This document shows positions 3,023 through 63,992 of a DNA stretch of 64,000 bases, piece by piece; the stretch's first letter is position 1; every line of letters begins with the position of its first letter. Location: the NCBI GenBank assembly GCA_030648835.1, contig JAUSGT010000002.1, positions 200,081-264,080 on the forward strand, in the 5' to 3' direction. The stretch is from Candidatus Moraniibacteriota bacterium (lineage in GTDB: Bacteria > Patescibacteriota > Minisyncoccia > Moranbacterales > UBA1568). The translations under genes were made by a program, and so were the position numbers. The notes under the pieces are model-generated. The model saw nothing but the letters and a program-made list of their open reading frames with translations, made no database searches and was not told the origin of the DNA.

Positions 3023-3244
3023 AAGGTCTTTATTACTTCTTTTCTTCTCGTGGCAGCCATCGAACATTTCTGACTCACTCTGTCGAACGGGGAGCTGTCC
3101 TGTCGAGACCCTGTCTACCGGCAGGCAGGCATCCGCCCGCCTCGACGAGCGAGAGCGAGGCCGGGTCACGCTCGACCGTTACCGACTCGCTCATCACAAA
3201 TGTTACCGCTGCCTGCCAAAGAAGAAAATAAATACATAAAGACC
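3023..3244. mobile_element. MITE-like repeat family A, copy 2
   Basis: Same core as copy 1 with an extra internal GC-rich hairpin segment, bracketed by an imperfect ~35-bp inverted repeat. Sits between the DUF167 gene and comEC. Confidence 0.6.
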
Positions 3245-7870: not shown

Positions 7871-7941
7871 CGGAGTGTAGTATAGTGGTAGTACGCAAGG
7901 CTGGGGGTCTTGTAGTCCGGGTTCGATTCCCGGCACTCCGA
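7871..7941 (+). tRNA. tRNA-Pro (anticodon GGG)
   Basis: Manual cloverleaf: acceptor cggagtg/cactccg, D-arm gtat/gtac, anticodon stem caagg/tcttg with loop ctGGGgg, T-arm ccggg-ttcgatt-cccgg, discriminator A. CCA is not encoded. Confidence 0.85.
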
Positions 7942-7965
7942 CATTTAAAGTAGCGGGCATGGGGG

Positions 7966-8039: not shown

Positions 8040-8074
8040 AGCATGTAGGCCGGGTTCGATTCCCGGCAGCCCGA
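8040..8074 (+). other. Partial duplicate of the tRNA-Pro 3' half (variable loop, T-arm, 3' acceptor strand)
   Basis: 31/35 nt identical to tRNA-Pro positions 7907-7941, including an identical 17-nt T-arm. No matching 5' half lies within 85 nt upstream. Confidence 0.5.
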
Positions 8075-8098
8075 CAGTTTTTCGTAATAAAAAAATTT

Positions 8099-39591: not shown

Positions 39592-39762
39592 TTTACAAAA
39601 CTTTCTTTTTTCATTCATCGTATTTCCCGAACACTTCTGACTCACTCTGTCGAACAGGGAGCTGTCCTGTCGAGACCATCCGTCACGCTCGACTGTTACC
39701 GACTCGCTCGTCACAAATGTTACCGATAAATACGAGGTGAAGAAAAAAGGAGTCTTTGTAAA
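39592..39762. mobile_element. MITE-like repeat family A, copy 3 (lacks the central hairpin segment)
   Basis: Core cgaacacttctgactcactctgtcgaacagggagctgtcctgtcgagacc...gtcacaaatgttaccg bracketed by an imperfect ~38-bp inverted repeat. Sits immediately 3' of gdhA. Confidence 0.6.
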
Positions 39763-40979: not shown

Positions 40980-41798
40980 ATGAATACTCATGGAACAGAC
41001 CGCTCGGTACCGACTATGCAACAGGTGAAGCAGCTGGGGATTTTACTTGGATTCATCCTGGAAATTGTGACCAGGATCGTTACACGCTATTTCTTCGCCT
41101 TGAACTCTGACGAAGCGAAGGCTACGCTCCAGAACAAAGGAGCCCTTTCCAAGAAAATCAAGGTTGCGCTTGCGCCGGTGTTTATGATGGCAGTCGATGA
41201 ATATGCTGCCCAACGAACGTATTGGGAAGGCATCTATCTCACTCACTACGGCATGGCTGCGGATTTCGGCGAAGTAACGGTGCCGGAGAAACCGACAGTC
41301 GGCAAGTGGCGCCTCATTTTCATTCTGAAGGGATTGACGATGAATCACGCGGCGGCCATGTACCGAAAAATTCTTGCGGCCATCGATCCACCGTGGCAAC
41401 TGGTACAGTATATCGATGATTTGGACGCGCAGATTCCTTACAACATTCGTACTTCGGCAGAATCCTATGCTCTTTGGGTACGGGATGGGCAAGAGGCTGA
41501 CGAGGAATTTCGTGCTCAAACGACCAGCCAAGCCGATCCGAATCAATTGATTGGTGTCACGCCGCTCGAGCGTCTCGTTCATGGAGCAGCCCATTTTGTT
41601 GAAACCAAACAACACCTCGACGAGAAAGGGATTACTATCTGTTCAGGTTCGCGCAATGCGGATGGCTGCGTGCCTTGCGTGTGCTCGTATCCGGACAGTC
41701 GCGAGGTGTGCGTGTTTTGGTACAATCTGGGCTATTCGTTTTCCGCTGGCGGTGTCCGTCGAACAGTAGCGCTGCCGCAGGCGGCGCAGACAGCTTAA
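40980..41798 (+). CDS. DGR target protein (variable C-terminal ligand-binding region)
   Basis: 272-aa ORF whose last ~40 codons are the VR (SRNADGCVPCVCSYPDSREVCVFWYNLGYSFSAGGVRR). N-terminal hydrophobic segment. Confidence 0.75.
   Translation: MNTHGTDRSVPTMQQVKQLGILLGFILEIVTRIVTRYFFALNSDEAKATLQNKGALSKKIKVALAPVFMMAVDEYAAQRTYWEGIYLTHYGMAADFGEVTVPEKPTVGKWRLIFILKGLTMNHAAAMYRKILAAIDPPWQLVQYIDDLDAQIPYNIRTSAESYALWVRDGQEADEEFRAQTTSQADPNQLIGVTPLERLVHGAAHFVETKQHLDEKGITICSGSRNADGCVPCVCSYPDSREVCVFWYNLGYSFSAGGVRRTVALPQAAQTA
41645..41766 (+). repeat. DGR variable repeat (VR)
   Basis: 122 bp that differs from the TR at 16 positions, all where the TR has A and the VR has T or G. Confidence 0.8.
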
Positions 41799-42106
41799 CC
41801 TCGATTCTCAACTCTTTTTCTCTTTTTTCCCCGCTGTGCGCGTGCGCGCAGCGGGCTTTTGTTTTTGTCTTTTTCCATCCTTTTCTCGAAAGCTTTGAGA
41901 AGTTGTTGTATACTACAGAAGGTTGTTAAGCCAGTCTTGCTTGGGCAAGATGATGGTTTGCCAAGAACTGAAACTGCCTGTGAGTATTTACGCATAGATT
42001 TTTCATGGTAGGAAATGATGCGACACAGCGCTCGTGACCACGAGGAACACAGATGCTCTGGCGACAGAGGTTCGGTGATAGGGATGGATACTCACAGTAA
42101 AGATGG

Positions 42107-42228
42107 AGGTTCGCGCAATGCGGATGGCAACGTGCCTTACGTGAACTCGAATCCGGACAATCGCAAGGTGAACGTGAATTGGTACAATCTGGACAATTCG
42201 AATTCCGCTGGCGGTGTCCGTCGAGAAG
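42107..42228 (+). repeat. DGR template repeat (TR)
   Basis: Non-coding cognate of the VR with A at all 16 variable positions, rich in AAC/AAT codon-equivalents. The overlapping ORF 42015-42281 is probably not a gene. Confidence 0.8.
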
Positions 42229-42249
42229 TTTCAACACAAGAACATCCCG

Positions 42250-42624
42250 CTAGAGTGCGGGATTTTGTGTCAGGTATTTGATCCAACCATTCGTCATTTT
42301 GGAAGTTTCAACGAGGAGAGCAGCTACCTCGATGTATGATTTTTCAGGGATGACCTTTTGTTCATATTCTATGCGCACCAGGTGTTTCAGGATTTCCAGA
42401 GAGACGCGTACATGCTCGAGTATTTCTCGTTTCTGATATTTCTGCGTGAGCGAGGCGCGAAGGATACCGCTCATGGTTTCTAGCGTGAGATGCTCAATAA
42501 CCTGGTGGATACCGAGTTTATCTCGTTTGGGAATCTTGTGTCCAATTTGGTACAGAGTGGCATATACTTGTTTGATACTATGAACAATCGAAATATCATT
42601 ACTCCGAAGGGGGGGGGGTAACAC
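42250..42624 (-). CDS. avd: Avd-like accessory variability determinant (four-helix-bundle family)
   Basis: 124-aa helical protein between the TR and the RT. Size and placement are typical of DGR Avd, though it is divergently oriented. The N-terminal PPP is encoded by a C10 tract. Confidence 0.55.
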   Translation of the reverse strand: MLPPPLRSNDISIVHSIKQVYATLYQIGHKIPKRDKLGIHQVIEHLTLETMSGILRASLTQKYQKREILEHVRVSLEILKHLVRIEYEQKVIPEKSYIEVAALLVETSKMTNGWIKYLTQNPAL

Positions 42625-42715
42625 TAGAGGAAATTTTTTTCATGATATTATCAGTGTAGCAAATCTTCTCGCCGCTTGGAAAGAGTTTCGGAAGGGAAAA
42701 AGGAAAAAAGGTGAT

Positions 42716-43672
42716 GTGGCTTTGTTTGAATTTCAACTGGAAGACAACTTACTGCAACTGCATCAAGAGCTGGCTTCCCAGACCTACAGGCACGGTCCCT
42801 ACGAAGGTTTTTATGTTTCTGATCCCAAGTTGAGGCACATTCACAAAGCTAGTGTGCGCGATCGAATTCTGCATCAAGCGATTTTCCGTGTGCTATATCC
42901 GATTTTTGACGCGCATTTTATTTATGATTCGTATTCATCGCGCGTTTCCAAGGGTACCCACTTTGGCGTGAAGCGCCTCTTGCAAGCCTGTCGCAAAGTA
43001 AGCGAGAATTGGAAAGCTCCGGCGTACGCGCTGAAATGTGATATACGCAGGTTTTTTGATTCGATAGATCATGCAATTTTGCGCAAGCTCGTCGTAAAGA
43101 AAATTACCGACCATAAGACGCTATGGTTGATCGATATCATTTTTGCAAGCTTTGAGAAAGAAAAAGGGAAAGGACTGCCGCTCGGAAATGTCACCAGCCA
43201 GCTTTTTGCCAATATCTATCTCAATGAGCTGGATCAATTCGCGAAACATACATTGAAGGCGAGGCATTACTTCCGTTATTGCGATGATTTTATTATTGTT
43301 CACCGCAATCGGATTTTTCTTGAAGAAGCATTGGTAAAAATAAGAGCCTTTGTTTCTGAAACATTGTTTTTGGAACTGCATCCTTATAAAGTGGAAATCC
43401 GCAAAGTCAGTCAGGGAATCGATTTTCTGGGCTATGTCATTTTGCCACACCGGACAGTCGTGCGGATGGCTACCAAGAGCCGTCTACTACGAAAGTTAAA
43501 CGATGCCCGAAAAAACTTTCGGACCGGGAAGATAACAGGAGAGACGTTTGGAAGTATTATACATTCTTACCTCGGCGTACTTTTACACTCACGGAACCGG
43601 AGAATAAGAAGATGGGTATGGAAGTTACGCGAGTTGACACAAAGCGGAGATAAAAATGTAAAGTGGCGGTGA
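42716..43672 (+). CDS. DGR reverse transcriptase
   Basis: RT motifs DIRRFFDSIDH (A), LPLGNVTSQLFANIYLNELD (DGR-type motif 4/B) and RYCDDFII (YxDD). Conserved N-terminal residues continue in frame upstream to about 42647 without a canonical start codon. Confidence 0.85.
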   Translation: MALFEFQLEDNLLQLHQELASQTYRHGPYEGFYVSDPKLRHIHKASVRDRILHQAIFRVLYPIFDAHFIYDSYSSRVSKGTHFGVKRLLQACRKVSENWKAPAYALKCDIRRFFDSIDHAILRKLVVKKITDHKTLWLIDIIFASFEKEKGKGLPLGNVTSQLFANIYLNELDQFAKHTLKARHYFRYCDDFIIVHRNRIFLEEALVKIRAFVSETLFLELHPYKVEIRKVSQGIDFLGYVILPHRTVVRMATKSRLLRKLNDARKNFRTGKITGETFGSIIHSYLGVLLHSRNRRIRRWVWKLRELTQSGDKNVKWR

Positions 43673-60632: not shown

Positions 60633-63600
60633 ATGGCATCCAAAGAATTCGATATACTAAAAGCGATTCAAGCAGGGGCGAAGACCGGGAGCGAAGAGCT
60701 CGAGGGCCAGCTTGGCATTGGTGGAAAAGACAAGAAAAAATATTCACCAAAATCCCGTAAGTCCGCTAGAGCCGCTGTAACGTCTGAAATTGCTCCGGGC
60801 ATTCCCGTTACCCCGGTTGTTGTGGAACCGATGTCGGCATCGGCAGATGTCATTGTACCCAAAAAACTGAGAGGGCGGCGGAGACAAGGTGGAGGAGATA
60901 AAGGAAAAAAATCAGAAAGTATAACTATTTCTTCGGCGATGCAAGCTCCGGCCTTGCCCAATGTTGTTGTGGCGCCTGATTCAGAAGCAGCAAAATTGAA
61001 CCGCGTTTCTCCCATTGATCTTTCGGAAGTGAAGAACGGAAAAGACTTTCAATTTGCTGACAAAGATGGAAGCGACTTCATTGTGAGAGCGGATAATGAA
61101 ACACCGGGCCATTACCTTCTTCTTTCCGGAGATGGAAAACGAGTTTTAGGTTCTTTTGGCGAAGGCCATATAAGGGGAATAATAGAAGATGAAAGAGTGG
61201 AAGCGGTTGTTGAGCCAGTAGCATCAGCTTCAATGGAACCAGTAGCAATGGCAGAACCAGAACTGACAGTTGAACCTGCAATGGCTACTATCCCGAAAGC
61301 AGTTATCCCGGACGCCATCACCAAGCCTTTCATATCTACTCCAGAAGTGGAAGCGTCTCTCAATGCGGGTCTAAACGCTTTGGAGAGAGGCGAAACATTG
61401 CGTTTTGTCGGGAAAACCGGAGATATTTATAGGGTGAGCAAACGAGATAGTGTTCATTATAATTTGACACAGCCTGATGGGAGGATTGATGCGGTTAATG
61501 AGATATATTTACGGGAACAAATGGAGGGGAACTGGACGCGTTTGGAAAACGAAGAACCGGAACTGCCCAAGGGAACCACTCCGGAAAATCCTTCCGTTTC
61601 TCCTACTGAGAGAGAAAAGCTTGAACAGAAAATTGCCGCCTTGAAAAAAGAGGTGGAAGATCTACGCAAAGAATATGTAAAAGCAGATTACGAAGAGACG
61701 AATGCGTGGGCGAGGGTGAGGAAGTTTTTCGGAAAAAATTTGAAAGGTCTCGGTGAGAGAGACTGGCAGGAAAAACAATATAATAAGAAAGATGGTAATT
61801 CAGATGGTGTGTACATGCAGGCATTGTATCAGAACAAACTGGTTGATTTGAAGAATGCAGAGCTGTCTTTGATCAAGGAGCGCGCAGCCGCAGGCGATGG
61901 ATGGAAAAAAGAAATGGGCGATATGATCAAATACTTCGGTGTGGATGAAGTGACGAAGTTGATAGACGCCCGCACACAGTATCGGGCGGAGAATCAGAAT
62001 TTTCCGACGAAAATACTCGACGCATTTGGGGCTTTGGGAAGAGAGTATAACAAGCTTTCCATGAAACAAAAATTGGCTATTACTGCTGTCTGTGCAGCTG
62101 GGACGATTGGGCTTACTTTATCCGGTGGCACGGCGGCCGGTGCGATGGCTGGTTTGATCATGGGCGGAAAAAGATTTTTTGCGACTGCCGGACTGACGGT
62201 CGGTACGGAGGCCCTGCTTGATAGTTCCCGGACAAGGATGCGTAGCAAAGAAATGGAAGAAGAAATGAAGACGCTCGAAAAAGAGATGTCCGAAAAAGGA
62301 TTTGCCCACCTCGAAGCTGTTATCAAGAATAAAGCGCTCTCGATCGATGATGAGCTCCAGAAGGCGAAACTGACGAAGTTGCTCCACAAGGCCGGTGCAT
62401 TGACTGTTGGTTTGGCTGTCGGTTCCGGTTGGCTGACGCAGGTAGTGATGGATCATTTTGGCGGGCATGAAGCCGTCGATTGGGTGAAAGAGCACGCTAA
62501 AAATCTTATGGGAGATTATACTGTGATCCATCCCAAAGCAGAATTTGCCGCAAAAATGCCGATAGATCTTGATTTAGATTCAGACGCGCGGGACAGCGCT
62601 ATGGCCGCGGCCAGCCAAGCTCCAGTGATGTCTGGAGGTGTTCCTGACCCAGGTCTTGAACTGGATTCAGACGCGCGGGACAGCGCTTACTTGGCAGCGG
62701 ATAAAGGATCAGCGTCGCCTGGTAGTGCTTTTATCACAGGGAACGAATCAGAGTTGGACATGCGGGACAGCGCCCAAATAGCAGCAGGCCAAGCAGAGAC
62801 AGTTCCTGGGAATCTTTCCGGTACAGGCGATGGATCAGAGTTGGACATGCGGGACAGCGCTCAAGCAGTAGTAGAACAAGCGAAGGAATCACCTAGCAGT
62901 GCTTTTATCACAGGGAACGAATCAGAATTGGATATGCGGGCTGACAATCCACTAGCAAGTGAAACGGGCAATGGATCAGAGTTGGATATGCGAGATAGCG
63001 TTCAGATTGCGGCTGCCACAGCCGCTGAAGCGAGGCCTAGCATCATCAATGAGTTTATCAATCAAGACATCACCGTGAAGAAAGGCGATTCAGTATGGAA
63101 AATTGCCGGCAGGTTGGCGAAAGAACTTGGGATAGACGAAAAAAGTCCTCAAGGCACGCGTTTCATCAATGCCTTGAAAAATCAGTATGGGGATGTCTTA
63201 CTGAAAGAGGGATCTGTCATCAATCTTGCAGATAGCGGTATAGACAAGGAATTTGTCGAAAATGCATATGCAGATGCCACTACCTTGTCACCGGAAAAGA
63301 TGGCGAGTATCGCGGCCAACGATGTGAAGCTTCGGGAATTTGCGGCGGCTCATCCGGATGTCACGCTGACGGACGGCAAAGTGGATGATATTTTACATGG
63401 GAATGGAGCGGATCCGGCGGGGAAAACAAATCTTGGGTGGGAACATGGAGATGATGAAACCATAAACTATAATGATCATACGGTGAGAGAAACACCATCG
63501 GAAGAGAATATGGACGATCTTGTTTCTGATTCATCATCTGATACTCAGGCGGAATCCAGTGGAGCAGCCGCGTCGGAAAACGAAACGGTAATTGTAACTC

Positions 63601-63992
63601 GCGATGAGGGATCGGTAAAAAGTGCTGACATAGAATATGAGCGGGATATTCGTTTGGGGAAAGCGTACGATATCAATGTATATAAGGAGTATTTTGTGCA
63701 AAATCCGGAAGCATTCGGAGCATATAAAAAACTGGGAGAAGGCTATCTGGGGTTCATTTCGCAGGGCGATGCGAGCGCGATGAGATCTTTGGGAGGCAAG
63801 ACATTCCGCGAGTTAGGGAATATTGTGAGCGATCCTTTGGGGAGATTTGTGGCGTTGGCCAGGGAAGTCTATGGGAGTAAACTCGGTCTGCCCGGTCCGA
63901 AAGAAAAAGTGTATGAATATGTGGCGCGCATGGCGATGATCGGTATGGAACATCCGGAAGGCAAACTCATTCGGATTCCGCAGTCGATATGA
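60633..63992 (+). CDS. Giant membrane-anchored hypothetical protein (1119 aa) with acidic tandem repeats and a LysM-like segment
   Basis: Central TM helices (AITAVCAAGTIGLTLSGGTAAGAMAGLIMGG), repeats of (G)SELDMRDSAQ / LDSDARDSA, and a LysM-like ITVKKGDSVWKIAGRLAKELGID. Confidence 0.6.
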   Translation: MASKEFDILKAIQAGAKTGSEELEGQLGIGGKDKKKYSPKSRKSARAAVTSEIAPGIPVTPVVVEPMSASADVIVPKKLRGRRRQGGGDKGKKSESITISSAMQAPALPNVVVAPDSEAAKLNRVSPIDLSEVKNGKDFQFADKDGSDFIVRADNETPGHYLLLSGDGKRVLGSFGEGHIRGIIEDERVEAVVEPVASASMEPVAMAEPELTVEPAMATIPKAVIPDAITKPFISTPEVEASLNAGLNALERGETLRFVGKTGDIYRVSKRDSVHYNLTQPDGRIDAVNEIYLREQMEGNWTRLENEEPELPKGTTPENPSVSPTEREKLEQKIAALKKEVEDLRKEYVKADYEETNAWARVRKFFGKNLKGLGERDWQEKQYNKKDGNSDGVYMQALYQNKLVDLKNAELSLIKERAAAGDGWKKEMGDMIKYFGVDEVTKLIDARTQYRAENQNFPTKILDAFGALGREYNKLSMKQKLAITAVCAAGTIGLTLSGGTAAGAMAGLIMGGKRFFATAGLTVGTEALLDSSRTRMRSKEMEEEMKTLEKEMSEKGFAHLEAVIKNKALSIDDELQKAKLTKLLHKAGALTVGLAVGSGWLTQVVMDHFGGHEAVDWVKEHAKNLMGDYTVIHPKAEFAAKMPIDLDLDSDARDSAMAAASQAPVMSGGVPDPGLELDSDARDSAYLAADKGSASPGSAFITGNESELDMRDSAQIAAGQAETVPGNLSGTGDGSELDMRDSAQAVVEQAKESPSSAFITGNESELDMRADNPLASETGNGSELDMRDSVQIAAATAAEARPSIINEFINQDITVKKGDSVWKIAGRLAKELGIDEKSPQGTRFINALKNQYGDVLLKEGSVINLADSGIDKEFVENAYADATTLSPEKMASIAANDVKLREFAAAHPDVTLTDGKVDDILHGNGADPAGKTNLGWEHGDDETINYNDHTVRETPSEENMDDLVSDSSSDTQAESSGAAASENETVIVTRDEGSVKSADIEYERDIRLGKAYDINVYKEYFVQNPEAFGAYKKLGEGYLGFISQGDASAMRSLGGKTFRELGNIVSDPLGRFVALAREVYGSKLGLPGPKEKVYEYVARMAMIGMEHPEGKLIRIPQSI

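Follow-up and report, generated by a model that had tools for sequence, protein, structure and literature searches.

The locus described here is almost certainly a diversity-generating retroelement (DGR), a system in which a reverse transcriptase alters the tip of a binding protein, in its variable repeat (VR), at adenines of a template repeat (TR). Its features are, with considerable confidence, best explained by a chromosomal DGR of B3 layout in Candidatus Moranbacteria whose RNA would use permuted strands. The DGR itself is ordinary for its known class, whereas the order of elements in its helper RNA appears to be rearranged in a way that is, as far as we could find, undescribed. All positions (Table 1) are those of the window, the whole 64,000-nt stretch of DNA that was analysed.

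Table 1. Features of the DGR locus in order along the window.
Feature	Position	Strand	Details
Target gene with VR at its 3' end	40980..41798	+	272 aa
VR	41645..41762	+	118 nt; diversified positions 41667-41740; 16 mismatches to TR
VR 3' flank box	41763..41770	+	ACAGTAGC, IMH-like; usual family form GCAGTTTC
GC-rich inverted repeat after VR	41769..41787	+	GCGCTGCC / GCA / GGCGGCGC; 8 bp, one G.T
Intrinsic-terminator-like hairpin ending the target transcript	41830..41855	+	11-bp stem, 9 GC pairs, T-run
Promoter-like site for the TR RNA	41886..41914	+	TCGAAA-17-TATACT
Structured DGR RNA leader	41921..42106	+	~190 nt; 5' end placed from the promoter-like site
Leader hairpin P1	41935-41950	+	
Leader box	41970..41977	+	GAAACUGC; putative primer/guide strand
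Long-range helix, 5' strand	41978..41990	+	CUGUGAGUAUUUA; pairs with 42085-42097
Leader hairpin P2	~41991-42022	+	
Leader hairpin P3	42031-42044	+	
Leader element AACACAGA	42046-42053	+	
Leader hairpin P4	42052..42073	+	GAUGCUCUG / GCGA / CAGAGGUUC
Leader element GGTGAT	42074-42079	+	
Long-range helix, 3' strand	42085..42097	+	UGGAUACUCACAG; ends 9 nt before TR
TR	42107..42224	+	118 nt, 29 adenines; non-coding
TR 3' flank box	42225..42232	+	GAAGUUUC, IMH*-like; putative template strand of the priming duplex
Hairpin and U-run after TR	42237..42272	+	core 42244-42263
avd (accessory variability determinant)	42250..42624	-	124 aa
DGR reverse transcriptase (RT)	42716..43672	+	318 aa; LGNVTSQ and YCDD motifs

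Adenine-specific differences between the two repeats

The VR and the TR are near-repeats, and their ungapped alignment (offset 462) gave 16 mismatches in a 118-nt core. The TR holds A at all 16, opposite T (nine sites) or G (seven sites) in the VR, and the non-A sites of the core are identical in the two copies (89/89). The probability that 16 random mismatches would all fall on the 29 adenines of the TR is 2.9e-12. An initial annotation of this DNA had counted 16 mismatches, all at template adenines, between 41645-41766 and 42107-42228; both statements hold for the core, but that longer range contains 18 mismatches, 17 of which are at template adenines (P = 1.6e-11). It had also reported A in the downstream copy, mostly in AAC or AAT triplets, against T or G in the in-gene copy, in agreement with our tabulation (13 of the 16 core changes lie in AAC/AAT codons). 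The codon changes from TR to VR were Asn to Cys (three), Tyr to Cys, Asn to Tyr (two), Asn to Ser, Lys to Glu, Asn to Phe (two) and Asp to Gly, so Glu must be added to the Cys, Tyr, Gly, Ser and Phe listed earlier as replacing Asn-like codons.

The core mismatches were confined to codon positions 1 or 2 (16/16), where 27 of the 29 TR adenines are placed; by position, 8/11 adenines were changed at position 1, 8/16 at position 2 and 0/2 at position 3. When the window was searched with a TR-derived pattern carrying N at each A, only 41646-41761 and 42108-42223 matched (0 matches expected), and no further VR was found within the 64,000 nt. We considered the absence of A-to-C changes as a special trait and rejected it: 0/16 is unremarkable because, across the family, fewer changes lead to C than to any other base (~18% in the pooled first set). 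The VR allele, with three AAC>TGC changes and one TAC>TGC change, is the most Cys-rich among ~70 loci of a family in which Cys is under-represented (4% observed vs 9% expected); as a significant trait, this was rejected because it fails after multiple testing.

The downstream copy does not code for protein and has its parent gene nearby, as would also be the case for an ordinary duplicated gene fragment, that is, a decaying pseudogene copy with differences due to drift and an RT nearby by coincidence. However, drift would not put all 16 changes on one base of one copy, at the probability given above, nor would it produce the restriction to codon positions 1 and 2, or limit the bases opposite A to T and G while leaving C and G free of transitions. 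Furthermore, when 115 related loci (phylogenetically non-independent) and the corresponding region of the window were examined, 78 of these 116 sequences had A-specific VR/TR pairs with the same geometry and AAY-rich TRs, alongside homologous RT and Avd genes. The A-only mismatches and this recurrence in the family refute the duplication reading, to which we assign virtually no probability. The earlier proposal that the signature fixes the downstream copy as the TR of a DGR is thus upheld by the A-only pattern, the codon positions and the adjoining avd and RT genes.

Target protein, Avd, reverse transcriptase and gene order

Only 36 nt separate the end of the VR from the stop codon of the ORF at 40980-41798, so the VR occupies the 3' end of the target gene. 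The C-terminal domain of the target models as a C-type-lectin fold, which is, besides the Ig fold, a scaffold on which DGRs display variable residues, and across the family the last ~40 aa vary strongly within a constant framework. The N-terminal four-helix region is particular to this Patescibacteria family. Sequence identity to the C-type-lectin-fold DGR proteins TvpA (2y3c), Mtd (1yu0) and TaqVP (5vf4) is 6-13%, neither Pfam FGE-sulfatase nor DUF1566 matched the target protein, and sequence searches of the PDB with Avd and with the target family returned nothing. The exact target protein forms a singleton cluster.

Avd, which is present in most but not all DGRs, was identified by Pfam bAvd (E = 9.8e-11, 42.5 bits vs a cutoff of 40); the NCBIfam model DivGenRetAVD also matched (E = 2.1e-14) at 53.7 bits, below its cutoff of 80. 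The RT matched Pfam RVT_1 (E = 1.4e-21), and its best PDB relative was 8ub7_A, which we take to be the RT of the Bordetella-phage DGR, with E = 1.2e-41 vs 1.4e-20 for group II intron RTs, a difference of 20 orders of magnitude. The group II, retron and DRT models of NCBIfam all scored far below their cutoffs on this protein. Taken together, Pfam, the PDB search and the [I/L/V]GxxxSQ and YxDD motifs in the translation point to a DGR-clade RT next to the repeats.

The order of target gene with VR, TR, reverse-strand avd and RT is the CPR-type architecture B3, TR-(avd)-RT. The identical order, with avd likewise reversed, was found in ten relatives (L001, L002, L004, L007, L011-L015 and L021), and the distance from the end of the TR to the RT gene is ~490 nt in RT-anchored loci. 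At least 556 genomic relatives of the RT were counted, and most of the best 80 carry labels of Patescibacteria/CPR groups. The closest relatives found have a target protein 72-76% identical and an RT 83% identical to those of the present locus; in the genome collection, with its one genome per species, the closest RT is 65% identical. No locus of the same species was found in the metagenome and genome scans.

Sequences at the 3' edges of the repeats

The two mismatches beyond the core, 41763/42225 (VR A, TR G) and 41764/42226 (VR C, TR A), both lie in an 8-nt flank box that reads ACAGTAGC after the VR and GAAGTTTC after the TR, with 4/8 positions different. Non-A sites differ at 3/6 positions in the flank box vs 0/89 in the core (Fisher 1.4e-4); the two extra mismatches therefore lie past the boundary of the apparently copied stretch, and the box does not seem to take part in TR-to-VR transfer. 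The initial annotation had named substitutions at non-A template positions as evidence against its reading. Re-alignment over the range it had given showed none in the core and one in the boundary box (the first of the pairs above), which does not refute the DGR reading because it falls in an IMH/IMH*-like box outside the apparently copied stretch.

GAAGTTTC or a near variant was found at the TR flank in 31/33 loci, despite the non-coding nature of the region. The VR and TR copies also have in common an A-free GC-rich stretch (41741-41761 in the VR). A GC-rich inverted repeat follows the VR only (RNAfold -15.8 kcal/mol) and is, by analogy, the counterpart of the stem-loop that the literature places downstream of the IMH in BPP-1. 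From this IMH/IMH*-type edge, we infer that the flank boxes are functionally equivalent to IMH and IMH*.

Structured leader RNA upstream of the TR

A -10 box (TATAAT at at least 5/6 positions) was found 47-72 nt upstream of the leader box in 29/33 related loci, and the leader is conserved across very divergent loci. A covariance model of the leader (R1) had a single match in the window, at 41964-42102 (95 bits), and one match per locus in 46 of 80 RT-anchored genomes, with 97.9% pairing. No Rfam family reached its gathering threshold around the TR, and a scan of 41780-42760 with Rfam 15 at E up to 10 gave only two weak, unrelated matches (HAR1A and the Mn2+ riboswitch). Hairpin P4 showed compensatory changes at 9/9 pairs.

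The leader is tied to the sequence just before the TR by a 13-bp long-range helix. The median complementary run between the two strands was 12 bp for cognate vs 6 bp for non-cognate pairs (P = 1.3e-12), RNAalifold predicted the helix independently, and double compensatory changes were found at 11/13 pairs with 92-98% of cells paired (some of these pair counts were taken from a model-fitted alignment). In a control, 83% of cells were paired vs 35-51% when the partners were slid, and 0/500 shuffles reached the observed value. Furthermore, among 42 more distant loci, 31 had the same two-helix layout with other box sequences. A BPP-1-like partner for the pre-TR strand on the 3' side of the TR was rejected: cognate and non-cognate pairs were alike, and the 30 nt before the TR had no cognate-specific complementarity to the 150 nt after it (P = 0.53). 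The partner of the pre-TR strand was thus not found where a BPP-1-type RNA would have it, downstream of the TR along with the primer strand. We are highly confident that the leader belongs to the DGR RNA, and it probably supplies both the primer and the stop strands.

Downstream of the TR, a stable hairpin was present in 81% of related loci (median MFE z -3.4), including loci without avd between TR and RT. It is likely the 3' end of the TR RNA; it is possibly an Avd-binding stem-loop, and it may act as the avd terminator on the opposite strand.

Pairing of the leader box with the two flanks

The leader box pairs at 7/8 positions with the TR flank, with G41976 mismatched opposite A42226, and at 5/8 positions with the VR flank of the window, where G41976 pairs with C41764; the VR flank core CAGT (41764-41767) is complementary to ACUG of the box. 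Across 33 loci, 7/8 positions of the box are invariant and position 7 alone varies (G or A). The box:TR-flank duplex is almost invariant in the main family, so the case for this predicted duplex is one of conservation and complementarity, not covariation. When the two flanks were compared, complementarity to the box was higher for the VR flank in 30 loci and lower in 5, and the base of the box at the discriminating position can pair with the VR alone in 28 loci, with either flank in 8 and with the TR alone in 1. The box-VR pairs at that position were G-C, U-A, A-U, C-G and G.U, and the box covaries with the VR flank across subfamilies. The locus in the window is an exception to the rule of better VR pairing, except at the discriminating position, because its VR flank pairs at 5/8 positions vs 7/8 for the TR flank.

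The preference of the box for the VR flank supports a choice of the VR guided by an RNA primer, and we see an even chance that this pairing directs homing. We also considered whether the complementarity reflects RNA-RNA pairing in a read-through transcript, or only the common descent of the VR and TR flanks, both of which seem quite improbable. The VR flank is coding (usually Ala-Val-Ser) and may be conserved for that reason, and with the TR flank as its paralogue some complementarity to both is expected. Common descent, however, predicts complementarity to the TR at least equal to that to the VR, the opposite of the 30 vs 5 loci observed, and it sits poorly with four Watson-Crick pair types plus G.U at one position. 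Read-through, for its part, would have to pass the strong terminator between the target gene and the leader. The same asymmetry of the box is seen in BPP-1, where the IMH sets the directionality of homing (literature). Overwriting of the VR flank by the RNA box at every homing event was examined separately and is unlikely for the present locus, because 3 positions of the flank depart from the complement of the box, whereas the VR equals the TR at 89/89 non-A sites. In relatives, the VR and TR flanks may differ by a 1-nt indel; the VR flank is therefore apparently not overwritten by homing.

The leader could be real and yet have another role, as a docking scaffold for RT and Avd, a stability or processing element or a regulator of the TR RNA, with BPP-1-like priming from sequence downstream of the TR, antisense to avd. 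The box:TR-flank duplex, without covariation in the main family, leaves room for such a role, as does the likeness of the post-TR hairpin to the Avd-binding stem-loops that Handa et al. report just downstream of the TR. Nevertheless, we consider it unlikely. The covarying partner of the pre-TR strand (12-13 bp) is in the leader, and the 150 nt after the TR offer no other; the box lies directly 5' of the helix, in the order of primer then stop and with a spacing similar to that in BPP-1; the box, like the BPP-1 primer strand, fits the VR flank over the TR flank and covaries with it; and a terminator-like hairpin stands at most ~20 nt after the TR even in loci without avd.

Signs of recent activity

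The repeat pair, Avd, the full-length RT with YCDD, the leader and the open target ORF are all intact, and on sequence grounds the element is somewhat more probably active now than not. A relic, in which past retrohoming is recorded but diversification of the target has ceased, is a less probable but substantial alternative. The VR flank of the window has drifted from the family consensus, down to 5/8 pairing with the leader box, and related populations that were sampled twice (L011/L012 and L013/L090) had identical VRs along with their identical TRs. On the other hand, a relic would not be expected to keep every component intact, nor the 4-bp core and the discriminating C41764 of the VR flank. 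The non-A VR/TR sites are identical at all 89 positions right beside a flank with 3/6 non-A sites changed; this argues for a last homing that was recent relative to local drift. In addition, for the closest relative sampled in this way (L001/L002), two independent assemblies were 99.84% identical and differed only by six N's in L002, all of them within the VR and exactly at TR-A sites.

Discussion

The locus has much in common with the BPP-1 DGR (mtd-avd-TR-brt). Both show adenine-specific transfer from TR to VR and a C-type-lectin-fold protein whose C-terminus is encoded by the VR, and both have Avd together with an RT (8ub7 being the closest solved relative, E=1e-41), a GC-rich stem-loop after the VR and an IMH/IMH*-type difference at the 3' edge. 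Both also have a primer strand (putative in the present locus) directly followed by a stop strand that pairs just upstream of the TR, and the stop helix is of similar size and place (11 bp, ending 8 nt before the TR, in BPP-1; 13 bp and 9 nt here). The primer strand fits the VR edge better than the TR edge in BPP-1 as in the present clade: Sp47-56 of BPP-1 pairs at 7/10 positions with the TR IMH* and at 10/10 with the VR IMH, an asymmetry already noted by Naorem et al. (PMC5703328). The preprint by Handa et al. gives the order of strands in the BPP-1 RNA and places the template:primer duplex next to a 'stop' duplex.

The differences lie in setting and in RNA order. The present locus is chromosomal, whereas BPP-1 is phage-borne; its avd runs in reverse, in the interval between TR and RT; its TR RNA apparently has its own promoter and terminator; and its target family shares nothing with Mtd except the fold. 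The putative primer and stop strands are found ~130 nt upstream of the TR, whereas those of BPP-1 are 47-70 nt downstream. With p for primer, s for stop, a for the strand before the TR and t for the flank after it, the order is p-s-[hairpins]-a-TR-t here and a-TR-t-[hairpins]-p-s in BPP-1; with both strands 5' instead of 3', the RNA core would therefore be circularly permuted with respect to BPP-1. No similarity to the BPP-1 RNA was found by sequence or by covariance model R1, which has no match in BPP-1. Since the pre-TR partner lies in the leader and no relevant Rfam or R1/BPP-1 match exists, the RNA would work like that of BPP-1 but is not a member of its family. The RT-10 motif of Rfam/Weinberg, a structured RNA between TR and brt of BPP-1-like DGRs that was proposed for priming (PMC5737381), lies downstream of the TR, whereas the present leader lies upstream.

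Among CPR elements the locus is in familiar company, as architecture B3 makes up 90% of a CPR DGR set (Wu et al. 2018, PMC5758913). It has the gene order, orientation, host group (Patescibacteria) and targets without recognisable domains of the CPR/DPANN B3 DGRs; it is a further CPR B3 member with nothing categorical to set it apart. Work from 2017 by Paul et al. is said to deal with CPR/DPANN DGRs. We found no description of a CPR B3 leader RNA in the published literature outside that work and the supplement of Handa et al. Their preprint states that, in CPR DGRs, BPP-1-like elements arise by pairing of sequences on the two sides of the TR, and this statement counts against an RNA model with both strands upstream.

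The present locus resembles retrons in the position of the putative primer 5' of the template, and in that order only. In the retron msr-msd RNA, whose RTs belong to a different clade, the 3' end is paired to a 5' strand and the priming nucleotide adjoins this duplex; hairpins and then the template follow, and the cDNA stays linked to the RNA. We know of no retron with a VR/TR pair, adenine mutagenesis, Avd or a target gene, nor of one with a second 'stop' helix just upstream of its template. The sole NCBIfam retron RT model to match (St85 family) scored 58.9 bits vs a cutoff of 235 and the locus has a VR/TR pair and Avd, which argues against a retron.

On this basis we propose the following mechanism, in which analogy alone has served to place the priming nucleotide and both ends of the RNA. 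An RNA of ~350 nt would be made from its own promoter, from ~41921 to ~42272, and RT-Avd would bind the TR RNA. The leader box GAAACUGC (41970-41977) and the TR flank GAAGUUUC (42225-42232) would form the priming duplex. The cDNA would start at ~42224-42226 and proceed 5'-ward through the TR with misincorporation opposite adenines, and synthesis would be halted at the 13-bp helix 41978-41990 / 42085-42097, 9 nt before the TR. The RNA-linked cDNA would then replace the VR. The VR rather than the TR would be the recipient because, at the discriminating position, the box (through the core CAGU and C41764) is a better match for the VR flank than for the TR flank. That CPR B3 DGRs as a group use such a circularly permuted RNA, with primer and stop strands 5' of the template and the box as a short guide matched to the VR and mismatched to the TR, is a proposal that we consider evenly balanced.

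A DGR at this locus was to be expected, as DGRs are enriched in CPR bacteria and TR-(avd)-RT is their standard layout; the locus contributes one more hypervariable C-type-lectin-fold protein, from a member of the Moranbacteria. Of wider value is the RNA. To our knowledge, a single phage element, whose helper RNA lies downstream of the template, has supplied all that is known of the mechanism by which DGRs prime and terminate synthesis and choose their target. The present clade would keep the two adjacent duplexes with their strands shifted upstream of the template. If this is true, the pair of duplexes, and not position along the RNA, would be the conserved core, and surveys that fold a short upstream stretch (40 nt in one survey) and the downstream region would miss an element ~130 nt upstream. 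The choice of VR over TR by the cDNA would become addressable through the way in which an 8-nt RNA box and the target flank covary in nature; a guide for homing direction has so far been proposed only from the single BPP-1 sequence, and the covariation of box and VR flank across dozens of genomes would be the first comparative evidence on this question. The box, stop helix and flank would then also offer simple design rules for compact, retargetable mutagenesis systems.

The two repeats differ only at adenines of the template core

The variable repeat (VR, 41645-41762), which lies within the target-gene ORF (40980-41798, plus strand), was aligned without gaps to the non-coding template repeat (TR, 42107-42224) at an offset of 462, and 16 mismatches were found over this 118-nt core. 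The TR base was A in all 16 cases, and the VR base was T in nine and G in seven. With 29 A's in the TR, the probability that all 16 random mismatches fall on A is 2.9e-12, and the 89 non-A sites of the core were identical in the two copies (89/89). A TR-derived pattern with N at each A matched only 41646-41761 and 42108-42223 in the window (0 expected by chance); the window contains exactly one such VR/TR pair. In the frame of the ORF, the changed sites fell on first (8) and second (8) codon positions but never on third positions, and 13 of the 16 were in AAC or AAT codons, confirming the predominance of these triplets that had been noted earlier. The outcomes from TR to VR were N>C (three), Y>C, N>Y (two), N>S, K>E, N>F (two) and D>G.

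The initial annotation had reported 16 mismatches, all at template adenines, between 41645-41766 and 42107-42228. This range is four bases longer than the core and contains 18 mismatches, 17 of them at A (P=1.6e-11); both statements hold for the core. The two extra mismatches, 41763/42225 (VR A, TR G) and 41764/42226 (VR C, TR A), both fall in a boundary box. Substitution at a non-A template base had been named as counter-evidence; the single case, 41763/42225, lies within this box, which is apparently not copied from TR to VR. The observation is therefore correct in substance with a count off by two, and the reading of the A-specific pattern as the signature of a diversity-generating retroelement (DGR), with the downstream copy as TR, is supported.

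In every family locus the 3' box of the TR is GAAGTTTC or a close variant, and its counterpart in the VR is GCAGTTTC or a variant. Since a 1-nt indel separates the TR and VR boxes in several loci (e.g. CAG-AAGTTTC in the TR and CAGGCAGTTTC in the VR), the box appears to lie outside the copied segment. By its behaviour, the box is analogous to the IMH/IMH* pair of BPP-1.

The VR allele at 41667-41740 is unusually rich in Cys and aromatic residues, with four new Cys from three AAC>TGC changes and one TAC>TGC. First-position changes were A>T in 7/8 and second-position changes A>G in 6/8, and A>C did not occur. This VR is the most Cys-rich of ~70 loci (not significant after multiple testing); family-wide, Cys at AAY codons is under-represented (4% vs 9% expected).

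The locus is a chromosomal DGR of B3 architecture

Features of the DGR locus, in window positions
Feature	Position	Strand	Sequence or size	Remarks
GC-rich inverted repeat	41769-41787		8 bp	After VR only
Strong terminator	41830-41855			Target gene end
Promoter-like site	41886-41914
Long-range helix, 5' strand	41978-41990		CUGUGAGUAUUUA (13 nt)	Directly 3' of GAAACTGC
Long-range helix, 3' strand	42085-42097		UGGAUACUCACAG	Complementary to 41978-41990; end 9 nt before TR
bAvd-like protein	42250-42624	minus	124 aa	Directly after TR; Pfam 42.5 bits (cutoff 40)
Reverse transcriptase (RT)	42716-43672	plus	318 aa	RVT_1 E=1.4e-21

The translated RT carries the motifs LGNVTSQ and YCDD, the former fitting [I/L/V]GxxxSQ, a hallmark of DGR RTs. 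Its best solved relative was 8ub7_A (E=1.2e-41), presumably the Bordetella phage DGR RT, while group II intron RTs reached only 1.4e-20. The bAvd-like protein (avd, accessory variability determinant) matched NCBIfam DGR-Avd at E=2e-14, with a score under the family cutoff. The target protein had no Pfam or NCBIfam match, and its AlphaFold model is confident (pLDDT 89.5); the exact protein occurs as a hypothetical protein on a 636-kb contig of a Candidatus Moranbacteria MAG. Its family comprises 88 clusters, none with informative annotation and the few labelled ones from Patescibacteria MAGs, and combines a conserved scaffold with ~40 hypervariable C-terminal residues on the framework DG.VP.V...P..R.V.V.W...GVRR. 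The neighbouring genes are housekeeping genes (glutamate dehydrogenase, a thioredoxin-reductase-like protein, a MurA/EPSP-type transferase and MreB), and thus the DGR is chromosomal.

We compared 35 metagenomic loci obtained via the target family and 80 genomic loci obtained via the RT alignment; the RT-alignment scan gave at least 556 relatives, the best 80 of which are mostly labelled as Patescibacteria/CPR groups. With a self-BLAST detector, 78 of 116 sequences (the 115 loci and the window's own region) proved to carry adenine-specific VR/TR pairs. The TR is typically found 360-590 nt downstream of the VR and finishes ~490 nt ahead of the RT, and tblastn placed a reversed avd between TR and RT in most relatives. 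Architecture B3, TR-(avd)-RT, makes up 90% of CPR DGRs (Wu et al., PMC5758913). The window locus is a CPR DGR of this architecture; the DGR and the B3 layout are already known and, because B3 has been reported for CPR DGRs, so is the reversed avd. Two relatives, L053 (VRs 1203-1333 and 2329-2459) and L075 (VRs 1292-1416 and 2356-2479), carry two adenine-diversified VRs for a single TR, meaning two target genes in each cassette. In three others (L016, L029 and L034) just ~180 nt separate the TR and the RT, with no avd detectable between them, and the leader and post-TR hairpin are kept; avd may be elsewhere or absent.

One relative is represented by two independent assemblies, L001 and L002, which were 99.84% identical over 3.8 kb and had identical TRs. 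Their sole differences were six N's in L002 (VR 1237-1362, contig C687J35174_10056232), all at TR-A sites of the VR (chance ~3e-4), which are suggestive of VR heterogeneity in the population appearing as assembler ambiguity. In two further sister pairs the VRs were identical. At the window locus, non-A differences numbered 0/89 in the core and 3/6 in the adjacent flank (Fisher 1.4e-4), a contrast that indicates a last homing event recent relative to local drift; the element may still be active.

The window also holds other repeats. Three copies of a ~130-nt element that folds into a long imperfect palindrome (2616-2756, 3061-3231 and 39628-39748) stand directly upstream of YggU/DUF167, ComEC and the TrxB-like gene adjoining the DGR target; the element has no Rfam match and may represent a MITE-like repeat or a common leader. 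From tRNA-Pro(GGG) (7871-7942), 133 nt on, a 36-nt near-copy (89%) of the T-arm and 3' acceptor end (8044-8079) is not called as a tRNA by ARAGORN or Rfam; it could represent a fragment of a tRNA, an atypical tRNA or a scar left by integration. At 62562-63022, an 87-nt (29-codon) unit is repeated five to six times in tandem within a 1119-aa ORF (60633-63992); a rough translation of part of the ORF region had no Pfam match.

A conserved leader RNA precedes the template

The ~190 nt from the promoter-like site to the TR can be aligned even between loci with protein identities of only 30-40%. In this leader (predicted span 41921-42106), invariant boxes (GAAACTGC, AAC.CAGA and GGTGAT) are separated by hairpins with changing sequence and kept pairing. 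The uninterrupted run of the long-range helix had a median of 12 bp in cognate and 6 bp in non-cognate combinations (P=1.3e-12; 38 non-redundant candidate loci with a GAAAC box), and RNAalifold recovered the helix unprompted. In a 33-sequence alignment, double compensatory changes were found in 11 of 13 pairs. In general, counts across these loci overstate independent events owing to phylogenetic kinship. Here 83% of helix cells were paired, compared to 35-51% with partners slid by 1-3 columns, and none of 500 shuffles gave covariation as high as observed. On the covariance-model alignment the helix was 97.9% paired; this alignment is model-fitted and therefore biased towards the structure.

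The covariance model of the leader had one match in the 64-kb window and one in each of 46 of the 80 RT-anchored genomes (~26 of the 46 loci being outside the model-building set), each directly upstream of the RT, where the TR starts. It had no match in BPP-1, and Rfam gave nothing relevant over the leader/TR region. A box-agnostic search found the two-helix layout, with other box sequences, in 31 of 42 more distant loci. In 29/33 loci a -10-like box precedes the leader box by 47-72 nt, and 81% of loci have a stable hairpin 3' of the TR; the pre-TR strand showed no cognate-specific pairing with the 150 nt after the TR (P=0.53). CUGUG at the helix start (41978-41982; other strand 42093-42097) has an alternative, nearer partner, CACAG at 42024-42028, closing hairpin P2, and this pairing could permit two RNA conformations.

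The leader resembles a permuted BPP-1 RNA

According to the Handa et al. preprint, the BPP-1 active site contains a duplex of TR117-129 with Sp47-56, priming from Sp A56, and an adjoining 'cPRT stop' duplex of Sp59-70 with the last avd codons just upstream of the TR. The preprint also ascribes BPP-1-like elements to CPR DGRs; its RNA folding took in no more than 40 nt on the 5' side and 100 nt on the 3' side of the TR. The window RNA likewise has two adjacent duplexes, with a putative primer strand (p) followed by a putative stop strand (s), and the distance from stop helix to TR is 9 nt, compared to 8 nt in BPP-1. However, its p-s module is 5' of the template: with a as the strand just upstream of the TR and t as the TR 3' flank, the order is a-TR-t-[hairpins]-p-s in BPP-1 and p-s-[hairpins]-a-TR-t, then a terminal hairpin, in the window. 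By this analogy, the core of the window RNA is a circular permutation of the BPP-1 core. Retron RNAs have the order seen in the window. In the literature searched, we found no description of an upstream or permuted DGR RNA.

The duplex of the leader box (41970-41977) with the TR flank is 84% paired and almost invariant, and thus its support is conservation, not covariation. Of 54 loci, 30 have an 8-nt box that complements the VR flank better than the TR flank and 5 show the reverse, and cognate flanks differed from non-cognate flanks of loci with a different box (P=1.5e-16 for VR, 5e-7 for TR). At the position beside the universal ACU/AGU core, 28 loci have a box that pairs with VR alone, 8 have one that pairs with both flanks and 1 has one that pairs with TR alone; the pairs formed with VR there were G-C, U-A, A-U, C-G and G.U. 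In BPP-1, Sp47-56 (UAGGUGGUCA) forms 6 Watson-Crick pairs, 1 GU pair and 3 mismatches with TR118-127, compared to 9 Watson-Crick pairs and 1 GU pair with VR118-127. The window VR flank is atypical: it forms 5/8 pairs with the box, and the TR flank forms 7/8. Its 4-bp core is retained, as is the discriminating C41764, opposite G41976.

Naorem et al. (PMC5703328) had already noted the primer-VR match in BPP-1 and proposed that primer-IMH pairing sets directionality, so that idea is known; what appears new here is that comparative data support it and that the upstream box is identified as the putative primer strand. From these comparisons we infer where the RNA begins and ends, which nucleotide primes and what part the RNA may play in target choice. 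Overall, we give an even chance to a permuted DGR RNA of retron-like order, in which the primer box would guide homing to the VR.
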